DNA of 64,000 nt from Candidatus Thorarchaeota archaeon (GTDB taxonomy: Archaea > Asgardarchaeota > Thorarchaeia > Thorarchaeales > Thorarchaeaceae), in NCBI GenBank assembly GCA_004524565.1, contig SDNZ01000001.1, forward strand, positions 12,455-76,454, read 5' to 3'. The notes under the pieces are model-generated. The model made no database searches, was not told the origin of the DNA, and worked only from the letters and a program-made list of their open reading frames with translations. The translations under genes and the position numbers were made by a program. Below are positions 44,921-56,548 of this stretch, one piece after another (position 1 is the first letter of the stretch; each line of letters opens with the position of its first letter).

Positions 44921-45664
44921 ATGCACTCAAGTGAGGCTCTCCAAAGGCTTGCAGAAGCAATGGCTGGCGAGATTTGTCTCGCAGAGAGCAATCCAGGTGC
45001 AATTATGAGAAGATGGCGCGAACGTTTCAATATTTCACAAAAACGTCTTGCAAAACACCTCAGTGTATCACCATCAGTAATTAGTGACTATGAGAGCGGT
45101 AGGAGAAAATCTCCACGTGTTGAAACAATAAAGAGATTTGTTGAAGGTCTCATTGAAATGGATGGAGAAGAAGGAGGTAGAGTTGCAGTAGCGCTTGAAA
45201 AACTGATAGCTCCAGAAATAGCATCAGATGCAATTATCGATAGTAGAGAGTTTGGATTTCCAGTTCCTTCAAGATTACTTGTGGAACATCTCGATTGCAA
45301 TGTTCTTACTCATCATAATCTGCTTGATAGAGATATCTATGGATATACCGCTCTTGATAGTATTCGAGCTATAGTAAGCCTGACACCTCAGCAGCTGCTG
45401 AAACTATATGGTGGTACAACGCAACGTGGGGCAATCCTAGCAAATGTATCAACTGGAAGATCTCCGATGGTTGCTATAAAAGCAAGCCAGATTGGTACAT
45501 CAGTAGCTGTAAAGCCTGCAGTTGTGATTCTACATGGAGTTAAAGAGCTTGATCCGCTTGCTGTGAAGATTGCAGATAGTATACATCTTCCCTTGTGTGT
45601 TTCCGAAATCAGTTCGACCGAAGAATTAGTACGAGAAATTAGATCTTTCGATCCACAGATATAA
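44921..45664 (+). CDS. XRE-family HTH transcriptional regulator with a C-terminal domain of unknown function.
   Basis: 'NISQKRLAKHLSVSPSVISDYESGRR'. Confidence 0.55.
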   Translation: MHSSEALQRLAEAMAGEICLAESNPGAIMRRWRERFNISQKRLAKHLSVSPSVISDYESGRRKSPRVETIKRFVEGLIEMDGEEGGRVAVALEKLIAPEIASDAIIDSREFGFPVPSRLLVEHLDCNVLTHHNLLDRDIYGYTALDSIRAIVSLTPQQLLKLYGGTTQRGAILANVSTGRSPMVAIKASQIGTSVAVKPAVVILHGVKELDPLAVKIADSIHLPLCVSEISSTEELVREIRSFDPQI

Positions 45665-45665
45665 C

Positions 45666-46982
45666 TTGCAAAAAAGAGTGATTGAAATGGAATTTGTGAT
45701 GGAAATCAATGACCCTATTCACGACTTCATTGGTATTACCAATGTAGAGGCCAAAATAATAAACTCTGGAACTTATCAGAGATTGAGACGGATAAAGCAA
45801 TTATCTGGTGGTCATTTCGTTTATCCAACAGCAGAACATACTCGTTTTGGTCACTGTATAGGTGTGATGTTTCTAGCAGGTCGTACTGGCAAGAAACTTC
45901 TGGATAAACTAAAACTCGGGAATGACGTACTTCAAGAAGTCAGATTAGCAGGGTTGTTACATGATCTTGGCCATGGTCCATTCAGTCATGTCTTCGAAGA
46001 ATCATTACTAGAGAAACAAGGAAAGAATCATGAAGATGTTACAGAATGGCTAGTGTTGAAGAGTGAAGTCGGAGAAATTCTTGAAAACGAAGGAGTTTCA
46101 AAGAAACGAATAGCAGACCTAGTTCGAGGACGCAGGACCCGAAAATATGATGGAGTTGTTAGCGGAATCGTTGCAGGCCAGGTAGATTCTGACAAGATGG
46201 ACTATCTAATTCGTGACTCATTCTATTGTGGTGTCAATTATGGTCTAGTGGATATTCATCGACTCATTGACAGTCTTGATGTGTCCAGCGATTATCAACT
46301 TCACTTTGATATAGCAGCTAGAGGCGCTCTAGAAGCATTCCTTGTAGCACGATATGAGATGTTTCTGAATGTGTATTATCATAAGACCGTACGTAGTGTC
46401 GAAGTGATGTTAGTCAAACTCATTAATGCAGCAGACAATGTACTTAATCTTACAGGCTTCAAAACTCCCGATGAATTCCTTCTCCTAGATGATATGTCAT
46501 TAGTGTCAATGGTTAGAGAAATTGATCCATCTGAATCAGAGGATGCAAAAGAAGCAGCACATATGATGGATTTGTTAGACTCAAGAATTCTCTACAAATC
46601 CGTATTTGAAAAAGTGCTTCACACTGGAGATAGATTTGTATCAAAAGTTTTCACAAAGAAAAAAGTGCGTGAGAGTATTGAAGAAGAGATAGCTTCGATT
46701 GCTGGAATTGAAAATCACGAAGTCATTGTTGATGTTCCCACTTTGCCATCAGTCCCCTATAACCCACATCAATTGGATCCAATGGAGATTGCTATCTTTG
46801 AAACAATTGATGGTAAGAAGGTTTCTCGCAATCTATCTGATTACTCCAACATAGCTGAAATGATGAAAGGCTATCTGGATGTAATCCGTGTTTATACCTT
46901 TGAAAAGAATAGAGCTAAAGTTGGTAGAGCAGCACGTGAAGTATTCCAAGAGGTCCCAGATACAGCCCTGATTCATATGTAG
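45666..46982 (+). CDS. HD-domain phosphohydrolase (dGTPase/SAMHD1-like dNTP triphosphohydrolase family).
   Basis: 'HTRFGHCIGV' and 'LLHDLGHGPFSH' HD motifs. 438 aa. Confidence 0.75.
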   Translation: MQKRVIEMEFVMEINDPIHDFIGITNVEAKIINSGTYQRLRRIKQLSGGHFVYPTAEHTRFGHCIGVMFLAGRTGKKLLDKLKLGNDVLQEVRLAGLLHDLGHGPFSHVFEESLLEKQGKNHEDVTEWLVLKSEVGEILENEGVSKKRIADLVRGRRTRKYDGVVSGIVAGQVDSDKMDYLIRDSFYCGVNYGLVDIHRLIDSLDVSSDYQLHFDIAARGALEAFLVARYEMFLNVYYHKTVRSVEVMLVKLINAADNVLNLTGFKTPDEFLLLDDMSLVSMVREIDPSESEDAKEAAHMMDLLDSRILYKSVFEKVLHTGDRFVSKVFTKKKVRESIEEEIASIAGIENHEVIVDVPTLPSVPYNPHQLDPMEIAIFETIDGKKVSRNLSDYSNIAEMMKGYLDVIRVYTFEKNRAKVGRAAREVFQEVPDTALIHM

Positions 46983-47118
46983 AATAAATTCTAGACGAGT
47001 TCCAACATATCTTGGAGCGATTTGACATTCCCAAGTGTGTCTTTTCATTCTGTGTGGAGATTATATAGTACGGATTAGATTCTAAATTGAACATTGAGTT
47101 CTCTGGGGCTGAGAGCAC

Positions 47119-48066
47119 TTGAGCGATGAATTGACTGAAACCTTACAGAATATCAAAACGATAACTGGCGTTGAAAATGTTGTCCTAATTCAAAAAGACG
47201 GTCTTCCTGTAGCAAGTGCAGGAGTATGGTTTAGCAAAGAAGAGGTCTTTGCGGTAGCATCTTCAACATGTGCGATTTTTGGCGTGGCCAAGTTAATTCA
47301 TGGCGATTTCAACTATCTTCTAATGGAATCAGAAACATCCAAAGTGTTTCTTGCATCGCTTCCTAATGACCCTGATTACTTTCTTACTGTAACTACTGCC
47401 CCAAGAGTGAATCTTGCAGCATTATTTATTGAGATGAAAGATAATCTATCAAGATTATCGTATCTCCTAAGACAACACATTGATGGAAGACTTCCACCTC
47501 TCAGGTCGTATAGTACTGATGAAACAAGTCGTGTGCTTGAAGGATTTGCGGTAGCTGAAGGTCGTGATACTACATACGGTATTTCACGGTCTGTAATATC
47601 ACTTGATCGATCACAGGCTCTAAGTCTGAGAGCCCTTTTACGACAAGTACATGATTCTATCCCTGGTATTAGTTCTGTATTTCTATCATTGAGTGGTGGA
47701 GTCAGAGTTTCCCTAGAAGGATTCACAAACGATAGGCTTGCTGCAATGTCGTTTGCATTACATGATGCCTCCGAAAGGGTTGTGAGAACCCTCAGGAACA
47801 GTTCTCTACAAACCGTTCTGTGTGAAACAAGTTCAACTCGACACTTCATCTATGCAGTACCTAATGGTGTATTTAGCCTCTGGGTCGATAAAGATAGCCA
47901 GAAGCTTGGTCTTATGAGACTACTATTGAAACATTACATAGAAGAAACTCGACGAGTACTTTCTTCAGTTTCAATGGTTAAACCAGCTGTTCCTGATGAC
48001 CTAAAGGAACTACTTCTCGCAGGAAGTTCTGATAGGGGTCTACTCATGACGAGGAGAGATAAATGA
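47119..48066 (+). CDS. Tandem Roadblock/LC7 (MglB-like) domain protein.
   Basis: 'ITGVENVVLIQKDGLPVAS...SKVFLASLPNDPDYFLTVTT' is a classic roadblock core. A second similar unit follows ('ISSVFLSLSGGVRVS...RHFIYAVPNGVFSLWV'). Confidence 0.6.
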   Translation: MSDELTETLQNIKTITGVENVVLIQKDGLPVASAGVWFSKEEVFAVASSTCAIFGVAKLIHGDFNYLLMESETSKVFLASLPNDPDYFLTVTTAPRVNLAALFIEMKDNLSRLSYLLRQHIDGRLPPLRSYSTDETSRVLEGFAVAEGRDTTYGISRSVISLDRSQALSLRALLRQVHDSIPGISSVFLSLSGGVRVSLEGFTNDRLAAMSFALHDASERVVRTLRNSSLQTVLCETSSTRHFIYAVPNGVFSLWVDKDSQKLGLMRLLLKHYIEETRRVLSSVSMVKPAVPDDLKELLLAGSSDRGLLMTRRDK

Positions 48067-48983
48067 CATATTCAATACTACGTATGATTGAACTAATGGG
48101 TGATCAATTTCCATTACTACTTAATTCAGTCTTAGAACGAATACCTGTAATTGTCGCAGGAGAAGATATCGAACTTGTGGACGATATAACAGAATGCCTT
48201 ACAATGCTTTGTCCACACAGACATAAACTGGTCTTTTGGAGAGATTTTACTTCAGAGTCAGAGATATTATCTGTCTGGGAAGAGGAGAAACACAACTATG
48301 AAGTCAGCAGAACTGTTGTTTGTGGACTGTCTGGAAATCTGAGGTTAGCCTTGGATAGAATCACTCGTTTTGCAGGTTGGATTCTAGCTATACCATTAGG
48401 AACTATGGTTCTTGGTGTTCAGGTAGATGAAAAGACCTTGGAAGATGTCATATCTCATGTTCAAAATAACTCGGGTAATTGTGGGATACTTAGAATTACT
48501 TCCCCATCAGCAATAACATTCACTCTCCTGAACCAATCTAATAGTAGTCTTGATGTAGAAAAGAAAATAGTCAATAAAATTTTAGTTCGGAAAAAGCAAT
48601 CTTTAGAGAGAATCCGCCGCTTATTAACAAAATCACTTCGCGGTACAAATGTATCAGAGCATATTGTGAATGCAGTACTAAAATTAGATGATGAGTCAGA
48701 GAAGCTCACACAAGATGTCTTCGAGGAGGAGATCAGCAACTATGTCCATGCCGCACGTAGAGCTGTAACATTGCTCTCTAGAATCCGACTTGCTAGAGAG
48801 CTTGGAGCATCTACCACTCTAACGGAGCGAAATCTCTACGAGGCAATTGGATGGGAGGGAGGAGAATTAATAGATTTGATTCATTTCATACGAGCTGAAT
48901 GGCATGAAGACTTTTCGGACTGTGTTAAGCTTGGTGCACTATCAGGTCTGGGAGCATGGGTCGATAGTATGTGGGGTACTTGA
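48063..48983 (+). CDS. Hypothetical protein between the roadblock and GTPase genes. Overlaps both with tight spacing.
   Basis: 306-aa ORF. Its start overlaps the upstream stop by 4 nt. No family was recognised. Confidence 0.4.
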   Translation: MTYSILRMIELMGDQFPLLLNSVLERIPVIVAGEDIELVDDITECLTMLCPHRHKLVFWRDFTSESEILSVWEEEKHNYEVSRTVVCGLSGNLRLALDRITRFAGWILAIPLGTMVLGVQVDEKTLEDVISHVQNNSGNCGILRITSPSAITFTLLNQSNSSLDVEKKIVNKILVRKKQSLERIRRLLTKSLRGTNVSEHIVNAVLKLDDESEKLTQDVFEEEISNYVHAARRAVTLLSRIRLARELGASTTLTERNLYEAIGWEGGELIDLIHFIRAEWHEDFSDCVKLGALSGLGAWVDSMWGT

Positions 48984-49001
48984 GTTTAAGGTGATTAACA
49001 C

Positions 49002-49583
49002 ATGATTATAGACTATGGCAATCGAACTGTTGGTCTCAAGATTGTTTTCTTTGGACCTGCAATGAGTGGAAAAACAACAGCAATTCGATGGTTATTTTCG
49101 TCGCTAGATTATGCTGATAAACTGACATCGATTGAAAATACTGTTGGCAGAACAATGTTCTGTGATTTCGGAACCATTCCATTTCCACTCAATGAATCTT
49201 GGACTGTTAACGCTCATGTTTGGTCAGCCACTGGTCAAGATTTCTATAGATCTACCCGCGAGGTGGTTCTTGTAGGTGCGGATGGTGTTATTTTCATGGC
49301 TGATTCTCAAAGTAACTTGCTAGATGAGGACCTTGCAAGTTGGAAGGAGCTTATGTCGATGATTGCAGAGGAAGAACGGCCATTACCAGTTGTTGTATGT
49401 CTTAACAAACAAGATCTTCCTGAAGTAGTTCAAGAAGGACACCTCAGAGAACATTTACGACTTCCGTCCTCAGTACCTGTATTCAGAAGTATTGCTAAAG
49501 ATGGTCATAACATCCTTGAGGCCTTCCAATTCATATTCCAAGCTGCCATGAAAGCTAGTGTCGTTGCCAAACCTGTTTCATAA
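49002..49583 (+). CDS. Ras-superfamily small GTPase (MglA/Arf/Rag-like).
   Basis: 'FFGPAMSGKTT' P-loop (G1), 'VGRT' (G2 Thr), 'WSATGQ' (G3, DxxGQ-like), 'NKQDL' (G4), 'SIAKDG' (G5, SAK). Confidence 0.7.
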   Translation: MIIDYGNRTVGLKIVFFGPAMSGKTTAIRWLFSSLDYADKLTSIENTVGRTMFCDFGTIPFPLNESWTVNAHVWSATGQDFYRSTREVVLVGADGVIFMADSQSNLLDEDLASWKELMSMIAEEERPLPVVVCLNKQDLPEVVQEGHLREHLRLPSSVPVFRSIAKDGHNILEAFQFIFQAAMKASVVAKPVS

Positions 49584-49596
49584 AAGACCTAGAAAT

Positions 49597-49673
49597 TGGT
49601 GCGACCGCCGGGATTTGAACCCGGCTTGAAAGCTTGGGAAGCTTCCGTCCTAACCAGACTAGACAACGATCGC
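49597..49673 (-). tRNA. tRNA-Gly(CCC), intron-less.
   Basis: Reverse complement gives GCGAUCG...CGGUCGC-A-CCA. Anticodon stem GAAGC/GCUUU with loop UUCCCAA. T-arm CCGGG-UUCAAAU-CCCGG. Confidence 0.8.
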
Positions 49674-49788: not shown

Positions 49789-50922
49789 ATGTCTCCCAAC
49801 GTTAAATCATTGAACTTCTGGCAAGGAAATCAAGCCTGTGCAGAGGCAGCTATTGCAGCTGGTTGCAGATTTTTTGCAGGTTATCCAATTACACCAGCAT
49901 CTGAGATTGCTGAAATCATGTCCCAACAATTACCTAAAATTGGAGGGACCTATGTGCAGATGGAAGATGAAATTGCAGCAATTTCAGCTGTGATAGGTAG
50001 TGCATGGGGTGGATCTCTATCGATGACTGCGACTTCAGGTCCGGGCTTTAGTCTGATGCAGGAAAATATTGGATATGCCATAATGACTGAAACTCCGTGT
50101 GTTATCGTGGATGTTCAAAGAGCTGGACCCAGTACTGGACAAGCAACAAAAGCAGCTCAAGGAGACCTCATGCAAGCAAGGTGGGGAACTCATGGTGATC
50201 ATGAGATGATTGTATTAGCGCCTAATTCATCCCAAGAAACCTACGAACTCACACTCAAAGCGTTTAGTCTATCAGAGAAACTTCGACATCCGGTTATTCT
50301 TCTTTCTGATGAGGTCGTAGGTCATTCAAGAGAAAAAGTAGTAATAGACCCCCAAAGTAATAATCAAATACACAGAAGATTGGCGAAAATGGGTGAACCA
50401 TCATATGGTGGTGTGGATTCTAATGGACATGCAATAATGCCAAAATTTGGAGATGGACATAATCTTCTGATAACAGGTTCTACCCATGATGAGCGAGGTT
50501 TCAGGAAGACTTCTGATTCTGAAGCCCACGATAGACTGATTCGAAGAATTACAGCCAAAATCCAAGATGCAGCACCTATTTTAAATGATTTCGAGATTTC
50601 AGGTCCGGAGAGTGCCGAGTGGGGGATTATTTCTTTTGGTTCTACATCAAGGTCTGTTGAGGAGTTGATGACTACTAAAGATAGTAAACCAACCCTAAGA
50701 ACGATGAGATTGAAGACAGTTTGGCCATTCCCTGATCAAGCAATACGTGAATTCAGCAAAACAGTTGATAAGCTACTAGTCCCTGAATTGAACCTTGGAC
50801 AAATGTCTAGAGAAGTTTCACGTGTCGTTAGGGATACCGTAGAAGTAATTCCATTGAATAAAATTGGTGGTGGTCGAATGATTGAACCAGACGAATTACT
50901 TACTACCATGGTCCAGTCATAA
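49789..50922 (+). CDS. 2-oxoacid:ferredoxin oxidoreductase alpha subunit (KorA/PorA-like). No adjacent beta subunit.
   Basis: 'AGYPITPASEIAE' and 'TATSGPGFSLMQE' are OFOR alpha motifs. 377 aa. Confidence 0.8.
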   Translation: MSPNVKSLNFWQGNQACAEAAIAAGCRFFAGYPITPASEIAEIMSQQLPKIGGTYVQMEDEIAAISAVIGSAWGGSLSMTATSGPGFSLMQENIGYAIMTETPCVIVDVQRAGPSTGQATKAAQGDLMQARWGTHGDHEMIVLAPNSSQETYELTLKAFSLSEKLRHPVILLSDEVVGHSREKVVIDPQSNNQIHRRLAKMGEPSYGGVDSNGHAIMPKFGDGHNLLITGSTHDERGFRKTSDSEAHDRLIRRITAKIQDAAPILNDFEISGPESAEWGIISFGSTSRSVEELMTTKDSKPTLRTMRLKTVWPFPDQAIREFSKTVDKLLVPELNLGQMSREVSRVVRDTVEVIPLNKIGGGRMIEPDELLTTMVQS

Positions 50923-52611
50923 AGAATTGATTCATCAATCTCGATAATTACGATGATGCTAGTCTTCATCCACACAGTCACATTTTCCGTTTGAATAGAA
51001 GATATGAAGTATGGTGCAGCTATCTCAAAACTGAATGTATGTTCTCCAGCTTGAATCCTGAGTGGAAGTGGCAATGAAATAGGTTGAGTTGTAATGATCT
51101 GAGGAATAGTTGCAAAGGGAGTGCTTTCATTATCGCAATAGGCCATTATGGTGACTATATCGATTGTATTATTATTGAGATCAAAGGCCGAAAGGATGAT
51201 GTGAAGATTTTCTCCATAGAAAGCAGATTCTACGGTGACATTGATACTGAGTTCCCCAATAACATTGAACTGGAATTCGTATAGTTCAGAGAAATTGTAG
51301 TATGCATTAGTTGGCTCAGGAGTGATTAGATGAGGTCCTATTGTTAGGTTATACCAAGCTGTTAGTGGTACACTACTCAATAGGTGAGGAGTTATACCTT
51401 TAGAGATAGAGAATTCACCAAAATCATCCGTGAATTGTAATGTGATTTCTTGGCCCCAATTAAATTCCTCCTCAATTGTAAATTCGATTGATGTAGTATT
51501 TCCATGAATAGCGGAAATATTCGTTTGAACTGGATAAAAGTAAAGTATGTTCTCATTGGCGGTAATAGGAATAAATTGAGTATTTGCTTGATATTTTGGA
51601 TTTGATGTTGTGATATTGATGATATATAAGCCTGGAGGCGTTTGAAATGGGATTACAGTAGTATAGAACCCATCTCCAAGATTTGCCATTTCCCCGTTGT
51701 TGAAACCTGCATTCCACAAGAGTGTGCTATCGGATATCCCACTATAGTCTGCTGCTTCGTGCCTTACGGTTATGTTCACATTTTCGAAATGTGAACCATC
51801 TGGGGATTGGCATTGAACAGAGGAGGGAGCAGAAACAACTGTTAGATTAGAAGCTGTGGGAACTACTGAAAGCGGTAAAGATTTAGAAAATCCTAGAAAA
51901 TCTTCGTTTCCACTTCCTGATACTATTAGATCATAGGTGCCAGGTAACCCCATTGAGCTGTTCCAGTCGAAACTAAAAGAACCATCGGGATTAGTTGTCG
52001 TATTAGTGTCAAGTATTGTTTCTGCACTAGGATTATCAATTCGAATATTGATAGACTCGTTGGCATATTCAACGTTATTATCATAGATTGATACGACACG
52101 GGAAATCAGTGTTGCATTACTGTCAGATTGTACGACCAGAGGAGTGACCGGAACAACGGTGAGATGACCTCTTGTGATGAGAACCTCAATGTTGTCACCA
52201 GCACCTTGAGAAACTGTATCAAATATCTCAACGTTGAAAATAATGTAAGCAGTGCTTCCATTTTCACCTGGACTTGTATCGCTTGGTAGGATAGTATATG
52301 ACGAATTTAGCATACGTGGATTTGGTGAAGCTGAAATGAAATATTCGTCTGCAAATGTGGGACCTAGGTCAGTGACCGCAGCAAAGGAAATATAGCACCA
52401 CCCCTCTGGACTAAAATCAGCAATTAATCGTGCAACCATATCAACTGTTTCTCCGACTTCATACACCATCTTGTCAGTTTCAAAATACTGAAAATCAAAA
52501 TAGAATGCTGTTACGGATAGTGTCATTCCCAGAACAATGATTACTGATAGTGATACTATTGCTAATCTCCTTTGTTGCACAGGCAAACACCAAAAAGAAG
52601 TCATATTCATG
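50736..52611 (-). CDS. Secreted/surface Ig-like repeat protein with an N-terminal signal/TM anchor and many N-glycosylation sequons.
   Basis: N-terminus 'MNMTSFWCLPVQQRRLAIVSLSVIIVLGMTLSV'. Long beta-rich Thr/Ser/Asn-rich ectodomain with many N-x-S/T. The 3' ~190 nt overlap korA convergently. Confidence 0.5.
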
Positions 52612-52685
52612 CCTAAAAAAGAGCACACGAATCTAGCGACAGGTTTAACTCAACACTTAACTAGCCTCATTTTAAGCCCCTAACA

Positions 52686-56437: not shown

Positions 56438-56548
56438 GCTCCGGTAGTCTACCATAGTGTCATACTATGGTGGTACCGACTGTAGTCCGGCCCAGCATGG
56501 GGGGTTCTCGACCCCCCGACCCGGGTTCGAATCCCGGCCGGAGCACCA
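56438..56548 (+). tRNA. tRNA-Glu(CUC) with a ~33-nt non-canonical intron in the D-arm (around positions 11/12).
   Basis: Acceptor GCUCCGG/CCGGAGC-A-CCA. T-arm CCGGG-UUCGAAU-CCCGG. Anticodon stem GGGGG/CCCCC with loop UUCUCGA. A Glu-type D region GUAGUCCGGCCCAGCAU lies after an insert (56449..56481) that contains the hairpin CCAUAGU/ACUAUGG. Confidence 0.65.

Follow-up and report, generated by a model that had tools for sequence, protein, structure and literature searches.

A Thorarchaeota locus encoding a tandem-Roadblock protein, a DENN/folliculin-like protein and an MglA-type GTPase is a probable copy of an Asgard-wide GTPase-switch operon

Introduction

Which small GTPase is encoded by a compact three-gene cluster in the genome of a Candidatus Thorarchaeota archaeon, and does the middle gene of the cluster belong to its regulation? 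Eukaryotic membrane traffic and mTORC1 signalling are organised by small GTPases along with regulators of the DENN, longin and Roadblock classes. Pairing Asgard GTPases with their regulators is otherwise hard (Tran et al.), and the operon described here is one of the few cases in which genome layout alone makes the pairing. We analysed the cluster in its surroundings, a 64,000-nucleotide stretch of DNA that we call the window. An initial annotation had proposed a regulatory module of a Roadblock protein and a small GTPase, relevant to the origin of eukaryotic GTPase regulation; the identities of both proteins bear out the module, and its relevance is upheld.

Results

Layout and conservation of the locus

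All three genes, and every feature located below, lie on the + strand. The genes run in one direction between 47119 and 49583, with the ORFs as described earlier: gene 1 (47119–48066) encodes a 315-aa tandem-Roadblock protein of MglB/LAMTOR-like platform type, gene 2 (48063–48983) a 306-aa protein that appears DENN/folliculin-C-like, and gene 3 (49002–49583) a 193-aa small GTPase assigned to the MglA family. Genes 1 and 2 overlap by 4 nt in an ATGA stop/start, and gene 3 follows gene 2 after a gap of 18 nt, with GGTGA directly before its ATG, confirming the tight, partly overlapping and co-directional arrangement first noted. By reading of the sequence, TTATATA at 47061–47067, ~52 nt 5' of the gene-1 start, is a putative archaeal TATA box.

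The triad is kept in 71 of 71 Thorarchaeota species-representative loci (where the contig allows) and recurs in Loki-, Hel-, Baldr- and Sigynarchaeota, making five Asgard lineages in total, all with the same gene order, Roadblock–X–GTPase. Retention in 71 Thorarchaeota loci and four other Asgard lineages indicates that the association is more than chance. In every examined locus the Roadblock gene lies two genes upstream of the GTPase gene, inside the span of at most four genes that counts as MglA–MglB coupling. One divergent lineage (L077) carries the DENN-like gene without an adjoining GTPase and has a tandem DENN–DENN gene pair there.

Neighbours of the module in the window include an XRE-HTH gene, an HD-domain gene and a tRNA, and within these 64 kb the three genes have no additional paralogues. 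We also considered a fourth conserved gene. The ~600-aa neighbours in the Loki and Hel loci are homologous to each other, but the 630-aa protein of the window is only marginally similar to them, and typical Thor loci differ downstream of the module, where they carry CTP synthase and NurA; we therefore do not count this neighbour as part of the module.

Gene 1 encodes two Roadblock domains in one chain

As initially annotated, gene 1 encodes two Roadblock domains in a single chain. The whole protein matches Pfam Robl_LC7 (PF03259) above the gathering score in two stretches (E 1.2e-9, 38.2 bits), its halves align with each other over 107 colinear columns (hhalign, E 0.0046), and an α-β-β-α-β-β-β-α pattern occurs twice in its AF2 model, which was built from a shallow alignment and is of low confidence (pLDDT 56). 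The product is 100% identical to EU528_00315 of Candidatus Thorarchaeota at NCBI and is named [quoted passage not shown] by JGI.

Domain 1 (residues 1–121; 47119–47481) is canonical, keeping the invariant D27-G28 pair and scoring 27.2 bits against the Robl_LC7 cut-off of 23; its secondary structure in the model is H2-16, E20-25, E30-35, H40-61, E66-71, E75-81, E84-93 and H99-121. Domain 2 (residues 164–282; 47608–47964) is divergent, with G193-G194 instead of D-G and a score of 15.4 bits, below the 23-bit cut-off. The linker between them carries a PPLRS motif (residues 126–130; 47494–47508) that is invariant among Thor, Loki and Hel orthologues. In the disordered tail, AF2 places a short C-terminal helix (H293-300, DLKELLL; 47995–48018) at low pLDDT, with L295, L298 and L299 conserved; by analogy, it may correspond to the C-terminal helix of MglB.

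Foldseek searches with this low-confidence model (pLDDT 56) returned MglB in MglA–MglB complexes (6izw, 6h5b, 3t12), Asgard Roadblock crystal structures and LAMTOR at E ~1e-6, the MglB matches having E ~2e-6 and TMt 0.67-0.82. The same low-confidence query matched MON1A/CCZ1, HPS1/4 and Fuzzy/Inturned over ~310 columns (E 1e-6 to 5e-5; TM ~0.26).

Gene 3 is an MglA-type GTPase with a predicted arginine finger

The initial annotation had weighed an MglB/MglA-like against a Rag/Ragulator-like module, naming MglA-, Rag- and Arf-like GTPases as partners of Roadblock proteins. Searched against PDB sequences with phmmer, the GTPase matches T. thermophilus MglA (1.3e-27) and M. xanthus MglA (3e-26) first, with Arf as the next family (1.2e-9), and it is 33-35% identical to these MglA proteins over its full length. 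A profile of its orthologues scores ~2e-39 (138 bits) against MglA versus 6.5e-14 (55 bits) against Rab7, an 83-bit gap to the next family. These score gaps and the motifs below robustly place the protein, at the sequence level, in the MglA family, closer than to Rab, Ras, Arf or Rag, so that of these options MglA stands and Rag and Arf do not. The 193 residues form a single G domain, and the C-terminal Roadblock domain of Rag/Gtr type is absent.

Motifs G1 to G4 were found as previously reported. The G1/P-loop GPAMSGKTT (residues 18–26; 49053–49079) and the G4 motif NKQD (residues 135–138; 49404–49415) are present, switch I (G2) contains R50-T51 (49149–49154), and the G3/switch II motif reads WSATGQ (residues 74–79; 49221–49238), with S75 instead of the universal Asp. 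This last motif had been singled out as an oddity, which it is not: loss of the G3 Asp and its replacement by Ser/Thr define the MglA family (PMC4316618), and PMC3000849 likewise describes the family as specifically lacking this Asp. Indeed, S75 aligns with the Thr of MglA TVPGQ, and all orthologues have Ser or Thr there. R50 and Q79 align with Arg53 and Gln82 of T. thermophilus MglA, respectively, and both are invariant in the orthologues, as is T51; R50 and T51 are kept also in those from Baldr and Sigyn. An intrinsic arginine has a described role in MglA (PMC4316618, PMC10933270). By these residues the GTPase is MglA group-1-like, with a switch-I arginine finger and a G3 glutamine that are predicted to serve catalysis.

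The same motifs bear on whether the cluster could be a signalling cassette of the actinobacterial conservon type (CvnB–CvnC–CvnD). The order cvnB-cvnC-cvnD is identical and CvnD proteins belong to the MglA family, but conservon GTPases are of group 2, with GTPGQ and no switch-I Arg (PMC4316618), rather than R50 and SATGQ. Further, no CvnA-type histidine kinase adjoins the locus, and the middle protein does not match DUF742 and is ~2.5 times longer. The absence of the kinase and of DUF742 and the wrong motif class of the GTPase largely refute a conservon, to which we give next to no credence.

Gene 2 resembles the DENN part of folliculin

The middle protein was initially described as having no recognisable family. 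This holds for Pfam and NCBIfam, in which it has no family match, but not for its predicted fold. Gene 2 is not an ORFan: its product is 62-94% identical across 71 Thorarchaeota species, homologues that span the full length are present in Loki-, Hel-, Baldr- and Sigynarchaeota, and among all named matches the family occurs in Asgard lineages only. The initial annotation had named two outcomes that would count against its proposal, a GTPase inside MglA and a middle protein that is an ORFan without conserved synteny; the GTPase does fall inside MglA, and five Asgard lineages conserve the middle protein in synteny.

The AF2 model of the protein, a confident one (pLDDT 88, pTM 0.85), consists of an α/β domain followed by a helical domain. 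The α/β domain (residues 1–155; 48063–48527), which appears cDENN-like, has strands at 29-33, 53-58, 83-88 and 106-111 alternating with helices; R26, P28 and R53 in it are invariant in the family, and E75, R83 and W106 are conserved in at least 90%. The all-helical, dDENN-like domain (residues 164–291; 48552–48935) has helices at 164-192, 199-205, 209-246, 255-262 and 269-280. The chain ends in a G(L/D)..W(V/I)(D/E)S(M/L)WG motif (residues 292–306; 48936–48980) that may be a docking motif, since its sequence is conserved despite a pLDDT below 50.

When the model was compared with the PDB using Foldseek, the top match was 6ulg_L (E 1.2e-3, prob 0.99), a chain whose identity we verified as folliculin. 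C9orf72, SMCR8, DENND1A/B and DENND10 follow, and nine of the best 50 matches are DENN-family chains; the TM-scores of 0.33-0.35 are low, and the match list also contains AAA+/RecA-type ATPases. At the sequence level, three of 33 family members match Pfam Folliculin_C (PF16692), colinearly and below threshold (best 20.2 bits versus a cut-off of 27), with profile positions 4-62 mapping onto the α/β-domain region, and one of the 33 matches Pfam DENN (PF02141; E 0.09). The window protein itself has neither Pfam match. Alignment of the gene-2 profile with human FLCN 342-579 (the 6ulg_L sequence) by hhalign is non-significant (E 0.47) and in the same register as the Pfam matches, and the profile returned only spurious ferritin matches among PDB sequences. 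Taken together, the modelled fold, the folliculin-led structural matches and the sub-threshold Folliculin_C matches argue that gene 2 is DENN/folliculin-C-like, at a level of similarity below Pfam family thresholds. No N-terminal longin (uDENN) is present in the model, in which the chain begins directly with the α/β domain. P0132 (400 aa), examined as a possible longin–DENN fusion, was rejected, as it carries only low-complexity insertions.

The ATPases in the match list raise the question of whether the middle protein is instead a degenerate AAA+/RecA-like ATPase, its α/β core and helical lid serving as a nucleotide-independent adaptor. Clamp-loader subunits, RuvBL, VirB11 and CpaF are matched at E 6e-3 to 0.1. 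These matches, however, are lower in probability and TM than the DENN ones and have an rmsd of ~20 Å; none of the 33 aligned family members has a Walker A GK[ST] or a Walker B, and there is no AAA Pfam match, which makes an ATPase origin highly improbable.

A broader objection is that the cluster may be an ordinary prokaryotic MglA/MglB polarity or motility module, with the middle protein a lineage-specific accessory, RomY- or MglC-like, whose likeness to FLCN is generic α/β-plus-helical convergence rather than specific DENN kinship. In favour of this reading, bacterial group-1 MglA proteins are the nearest relatives of the GTPase, whose gene is coupled to one for a Roadblock protein, the DENN sequence evidence is sub-threshold, and Foldseek TM values are ~0.33 with ATPases interleaved. 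Against such convergence, no structure matches better than folliculin (prob 0.99), and eight further DENN-family chains are among the best 50; the Pfam matches of three members fall independently on the same Folliculin_C region; the family is confined to Asgard among all named matches; and an independent published analysis (Liu et al., bioRxiv 10.1101/2020.10.19.343400; Nature 2021) also calls the domain DENN. We consider an ordinary MglA/MglB module unlikely.

The match to folliculin comes from an FLCN-FNIP2-Rag-Ragulator complex, which suggests a nutrient-signalling module of Rag/Ragulator–FLCN type, in which the Roadblock protein would be the scaffold, like Ragulator, and a Rag-type GTPase would have the DENN-like protein as its GAP, like FLCN. 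The Hel orthologue of the Roadblock protein matches MAPKK1_Int/LAMTOR3 (E 2e-4), and gene 3 has a weak Pfam Gtr1_RagA match (22.8 bits, residues 13-140 only). Its 138 bits to MglA, however, are far above any Rag, and we reject a Rag-type client, as the GTPase lacks the C-terminal Roadblock domain. In addition, the GAP arginine of FLCN belongs to the longin domain and lies outside the DENN portion, the one that gene 2 resembles (PMC12290439). Liu et al. draw the same Rag/Ragulator–FLCN analogy and also set the operon GTPase apart from Rag GTPases. On balance, a Rag/Ragulator–FLCN-like module is very unlikely.

Discussion

A proposed self-contained GTPase switch

We interpret the locus, with a probability of roughly 0.7, as the Thorarchaeota copy of an Asgard-wide Roadblock–DENN–small-GTPase operon that forms a self-contained GTPase switch. 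In such a switch the GTPase would carry its own catalytic arginine R50 and glutamine Q79, in the manner of group-1 MglA. The fused Roadblock pair is most likely the one-chain equivalent of the MglB homodimer; it would bind the switch face of the GTP-bound GTPase and boost hydrolysis by placing R50 and Q79, as MglB does. A group-1-like client with its own arginine finger implies that the GAP function expected of the Roadblock partner would be MglB-type and non-catalytic.

The ATGA overlap would couple translation of the DENN-like gene to that of the Roadblock gene. The DENN-like protein may bind the Roadblock protein, so that a longin–cDENN–dDENN module is assembled from two chains; this module would either govern nucleotide exchange or adjust GAP activity. 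We infer these binding partners and the GAP and GEF assignments. The earlier guess that the middle gene encodes a third regulatory subunit, a GEF or a longin-like protein, agrees with its DENN/folliculin-C-like model and a presumed regulatory role. The cellular output possibly concerns the membrane, polarity or the cytoskeleton.

Evolutionary implications

Zhang et al. (2012) derived the longin domains of DENN modules from MglB-like Roadblock GAPs of MglA GTPases. It is possible, though the odds are against it, that the operon shows the eukaryotic DENN module as it was before fusion: a tandem Roadblock protein derived from MglB (the future uDENN/longin) and a cDENN+dDENN protein encoded back-to-back in the eukaryotic domain order, with an original client that was MglA-type with an arginine finger, not Rab or Rag. 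If so, a fusion of genes 1 and 2 would have given rise to the FLCN/FNIP-, C9orf72/SMCR8- and DENND-type regulators, the client switch would have come later, after loss of MglA in the eukaryotic stem, and the tandem DENN–DENN pair of L077 could be a forerunner of FLCN–FNIP-type DENN heterodimers. Our literature searches turned up no biochemical characterisation of this operon, and its three small soluble proteins thus offer a tractable system for asking in which capacity a DENN domain ancestrally worked (GEF, GAP or scaffold) and which GTPase it served.

Comparison with known systems

The module is an already known system, described in 2020–21. Liu et al. found an operon of Roadblock, DENN and small-GTPase genes in most Asgard archaea and proposed it as an FLCN-like GTPase regulator. 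We equate the two by protein class and layout: both have a LAMTOR-like Roadblock protein, a DENN protein and a GTPase, adjacent, co-directional and Asgard-wide. The difference lies in the GTPase, labelled "Rab-like" by Liu et al.; our refinement is that the client, judged by its scores and residues, is MglA group-1-like with an intrinsic arginine finger.

With the MglA–MglB polarity switch of Myxococcus xanthus and Thermus thermophilus, the module shares the G3 Asp replacement by Ser/Thr, the intrinsic Arg, the catalytic Gln, a Roadblock partner coupled in the genome and the Foldseek match of gene 1 to MglB. MglB, however, is a homodimer of ~160-aa chains, whereas here one chain of 315 aa holds two Roadblock domains, joined by a linker with the conserved PPLRS; the module also has an archaeal host and an extra DENN-like subunit, and no RomR/RomX genes are nearby. 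The conservon resembles the module in its order of Roadblock protein, uncharacterised protein and MglA-family GTPase (PMC4316618), and differs from it in the kinase, middle protein and GTPase motifs noted above.

Eukaryotic DENN modules (folliculin FLCN–FNIP, C9orf72–SMCR8) appear to resemble gene 2, in whose model the all-helical domain comes after the α/β one, much as dDENN comes after cDENN; FLCN is the top structural match, and their longin–cDENN–dDENN order is mirrored by the Roadblock-then-DENN gene order. In contrast to these modules, the longin/Roadblock part is here a separate and duplicated polypeptide, the client is MglA-type rather than Rab, Rag or Arf, and sequence similarity is below family thresholds. 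Finally, the tri-longin-domain Rab GEFs (Mon1–Ccz1, BLOC-3, CPLANE Fuzzy–Inturned) share with gene 1 the tandem arrangement of longin/Roadblock domains in one chain, but they have three such domains rather than two, and no gene near gene 1 encodes a second protein of this type as heterodimer partner.

Locus organization and conservation

The module consists of three co-directional + strand ORFs whose coordinates agree exactly with those of the initial annotation: gene 1, encoding a tandem-Roadblock protein (window 47119-48066, 315 aa); gene 2, the middle gene (48063-48983, 306 aa); and gene 3, encoding a small GTPase (49002-49583, 193 aa). The gene 1 stop and the gene 2 start overlap as ATGA, and the 18 nt separating gene 2 from gene 3 include GGTGA. 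The window comes from a Thorarchaeota (Asgard) genome. The gene 1 product is 100% identical to EU528_00315 (NCBI), a Candidatus Thorarchaeota MAG protein, and every close homologue of gene 2 carries a Thorarchaeota name. The downstream boundary of the operon is set by a tRNA-Gly(CCC) gene (49597-49673, - strand), 14 nt past the gene 3 stop codon; a second tRNA in the window, tRNA-Glu(CTC), lies at 56473-56548 (+).

Gene 2 matches nothing in Pfam or NCBIfam, in keeping with its initial description as having no recognizable family, but the protein is conserved and probably DENN-like. Homologues 62-94% identical to it turned up in 71 species-representative genomes when a genome collection was scanned, and in Thorarchaeota loci the Roadblock and GTPase genes flank it wherever the contig permits. 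HMMER, run exhaustively against 1.84 billion representatives, returned 65 relatives, about 30 of them full-length (~300 aa, 20-33% identity); those that carry names belong to Helarchaeota, Lokiarchaeota, Baldrarchaeia, Sigynarchaeota, and "Promethearchaeota." The triad itself recurs in Loki (L072), Hel (L074), Baldr (L075), and Sigyn (L076) loci as a Roadblock-like protein of ~310-330 aa, a gene 2 homologue of ~300 aa, and a GTPase of ~185-195 aa, the flanking proteins being demonstrable orthologues. The middle protein is far from an ORFan.

The lineage that diverges most, 'Promethearchaeota' Kow0069 (L077, 3052-4936, +), lacks this arrangement: its DENN-like gene is preceded not by a Roadblock gene but by one for a second DENN-like protein, a paralogue with a blastp E of 4e-10 to gene 2, and no GTPase gene adjoins the pair. 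Such a DENN–DENN tandem recalls the FLCN–FNIP type of DENN heterodimer. One 400-aa homologue (P0132) carries two long low-complexity acidic/Ser-rich insertions within the α/β domain and is otherwise colinear with the family (hhalign E = 3e-51). To several sequences 80-92% identical to the Thorarchaeota proteins, NCBI gives the labels Odinarchaeota, Hodarchaeota, Hermodarchaeota, or Promethearchaeota, which probably reflects inconsistent MAG taxonomy, not true cross-phylum near-identity.

Directly upstream of the module (44921-46982, +) are genes for a 247-aa XRE-type HTH protein (HTH_3, E = 7.5e-11) and a 438-aa HD + HD_assoc_2 phosphohydrolase. This pair is syntenic with the module in essentially all Thorarchaeota loci and absent there in Loki, Hel, Baldr, and Sigyn; it could represent a Thor-specific regulatory link or mere local gene-order conservation. 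On the other side, a gene at 50736-52628 (-), overlapping the 3' end of the convergent gene at 49789-50922 by 187 nt, encodes a protein of 630 aa that no Pfam family matches and whose N-terminal segment looks hydrophobic by eye. It is weakly similar to a ~595-aa module neighbour in Loki (tblastn E = 1.8e-5, 20% over 170 aa), and the module-adjacent genes of this kind in Loki (L072, 7484-9271, -) and Hel (L074, 7583-9382, +) are mutual homologues (E = 6e-7). The protein is missing at the corresponding position in most Thor loci, with CTP synthase and NurA found instead in L018. No effector gene conserved beside the module was seen.

Gene 2 resembles folliculin and DENN proteins

An AF2 model of the gene 2 product, built from a 33-sequence alignment, is confident (pLDDT 88, pTM 0.85) and comprises an N-terminal α/β domain (strands 29-33, 53-58, 83-88, and 106-111, plus hairpins) and an all-helical C-terminal domain. 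Foldseek against the PDB ranks 6ulg_L first (E = 1.2e-3, probability 0.99); this chain is folliculin, matching FLCN residues 342-579 at 100% identity. The top 50 also include C9orf72 and SMCR8 (7mge, 6lt0), DENND1A/B (6ekk, 3tw8), and DENND10 (8p0v). Interleaved among them are AAA+/RecA-type ATPases, whose matches have a lower probability and a very high rmsd. The aligned family lacks Walker A and B motifs, and a reading of gene 2 as a degenerate ATPase fails on both motifs and match quality.

At the sequence level, Folliculin_C is the sole Pfam family matched by more than one of the 33 family members (three members, best E = 4.8e-4), in each case with the first ~60 residues aligned to profile positions 4-62. 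DENN is matched by one of the 33 (E = 0.09), and all of these matches are sub-threshold for Pfam. Aligning the family profile to the single FLCN-CT sequence with hhalign paired the corresponding region at a non-significant E of 0.47. Because this sequence evidence is sub-threshold, the locus might instead be an ordinary MglA/MglB module accompanied by an unrelated accessory protein; we consider this improbable and favor the assignment of gene 2 as a cDENN+dDENN-type protein, at a probability of roughly 0.8. The C-terminal ~15 residues (GLGAWVDSMWGT; window 48936-48980, +; family consensus GD....LWG) rank with the family's best-conserved stretches, yet have AF2 pLDDT below 50, a pattern typical of a motif that folds upon partner binding.

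The Roadblock and GTPase partners

Pfam Robl_LC7 matches the gene 1 product in two stretches; with the halves scanned separately, the N-terminal one scores above threshold (27.2 bits) and the C-terminal one below (15.4 bits). Profile-profile alignment of the halves yields 107 colinear columns (E = 0.0046), and the AF2 model, of low confidence (pLDDT 56) because the alignment is shallow, shows the Roadblock α-β-β-α-β-β-β-α pattern twice. The two Roadblock domains initially annotated are borne out, and the protein is most likely a pseudo-dimer made by internal duplication. Foldseek with this low-confidence model recovers MglB (including MglA–MglB complex chains), Asgard Roadblock crystal structures, and LAMTOR, and, over ~310 columns, the multi-longin Rab-GEF subunits Mon1/Ccz1, BLOC-3, and Fuzzy/Inturned. 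Domain 1 keeps, as the invariant D27-G28, the D-G pair that MglB proteins coupled to MglA typically have; domain 2 has G-G at that place. The interdomain linker carries a PPLRS motif (47494-47508, +), invariant from Thor to Loki and Hel and containing an invariant arginine. Conservon kinases have a conserved LPxR motif (PMC4316618), to which any link would be conjectural. The disordered C-terminal tail includes a short conserved helix. In the Thor-like 'Promethearchaeota' DZ3M.167 (L034, 2801-3919, +), the tandem-Roadblock protein has 374 aa, ~60 more than the others, and tblastn identity falls to 67%, owing to an insertion or else to an artefact of the assembly.

Among all PDB sequences, the gene 3 product best matches MglA from T. 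thermophilus (1.3e-27) and M. xanthus (3e-26), both full length, followed by Arf and Rab7 at ~1e-9 to 1e-7. The gap widens with a 14-orthologue profile (MglA, ~2e-39 and 138 bits, versus Rab7, 6.5e-14 and 55 bits). R50-T51 aligns on the MglA switch-I Arg-Thr, whose arginine is the intrinsic arginine finger in MglA, and S75 to Q79 (SATGQ) on MglA TVPGQ. Residues G49, R50, T51, T77, G78, and Q79 are invariant across Thor, Loki, and Hel orthologues and are found in those of Baldr and Sigyn too. The switch-I arginine marks group 1 MglA, groups 2-5 having GTPGQ and lacking that arginine (PMC4316618). From this alignment and these group definitions, gene 3 is, as judged by sequence, an MglA-type, group-1-like GTPase, and its G3 motif WSATGQ, first called unusual, is in fact a family hallmark. 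An arrangement of the Rag/Ragulator–FLCN kind fails on GTPase type and architecture. A conservon fails on kinase, DUF742, and GTPase motif class.

Proposed mechanism and relation to known systems

The data show the protein identities and the synteny; the mechanism that follows is a proposal. If the module works as MglA–MglB does, the GTPase in its GTP form would be bound 1:1 by the tandem Roadblock protein, which would act as its GAP through positioning of R50 and Q79. We infer that the DENN-like protein may dock onto the Roadblock protein, giving a complete split DENN module that could promote exchange or modulate GAP activity. Gene 1 residues 293-300 and gene 2 residues 292-306, conserved and modelled with low confidence, are candidate docking motifs; the former call to mind MglB's regulatory C-terminal helix.

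The locus is not new: it represents, in Thorarchaeota, an Asgard operon that has been published before. Liu et al. (10.1101/2020.10.19.343400) reported the Roadblock-DENN-GTPase operon from most Asgard archaea, likened it to the FLCN complex, and noted that its GTPase differs from Rag GTPases. In later papers, the known Asgard components include DENN domains as well as the MglA1 and MglA2-5 groups, and Zhang et al. (2012) considered MglB-like Roadblock GAPs of MglA GTPases the source of DENN-module longin domains; on these grounds the system was already known. Literature searches found no experimental characterization of the operon. The observation in the initial annotation is confirmed and its interpretation upheld in part. 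Though known, the operon remains biologically attractive, and our additions to it are modest. Judged by its residues, the operon GTPase is MglA group-1-like and has every catalytic residue that the MglA/MglB mechanism uses; the Roadblock partner carries an internal duplication that makes it a likely pseudo-dimer; and the translationally coupled genes, Roadblock then DENN, stand in an order that parallels that of the longin, cDENN, and dDENN domains.
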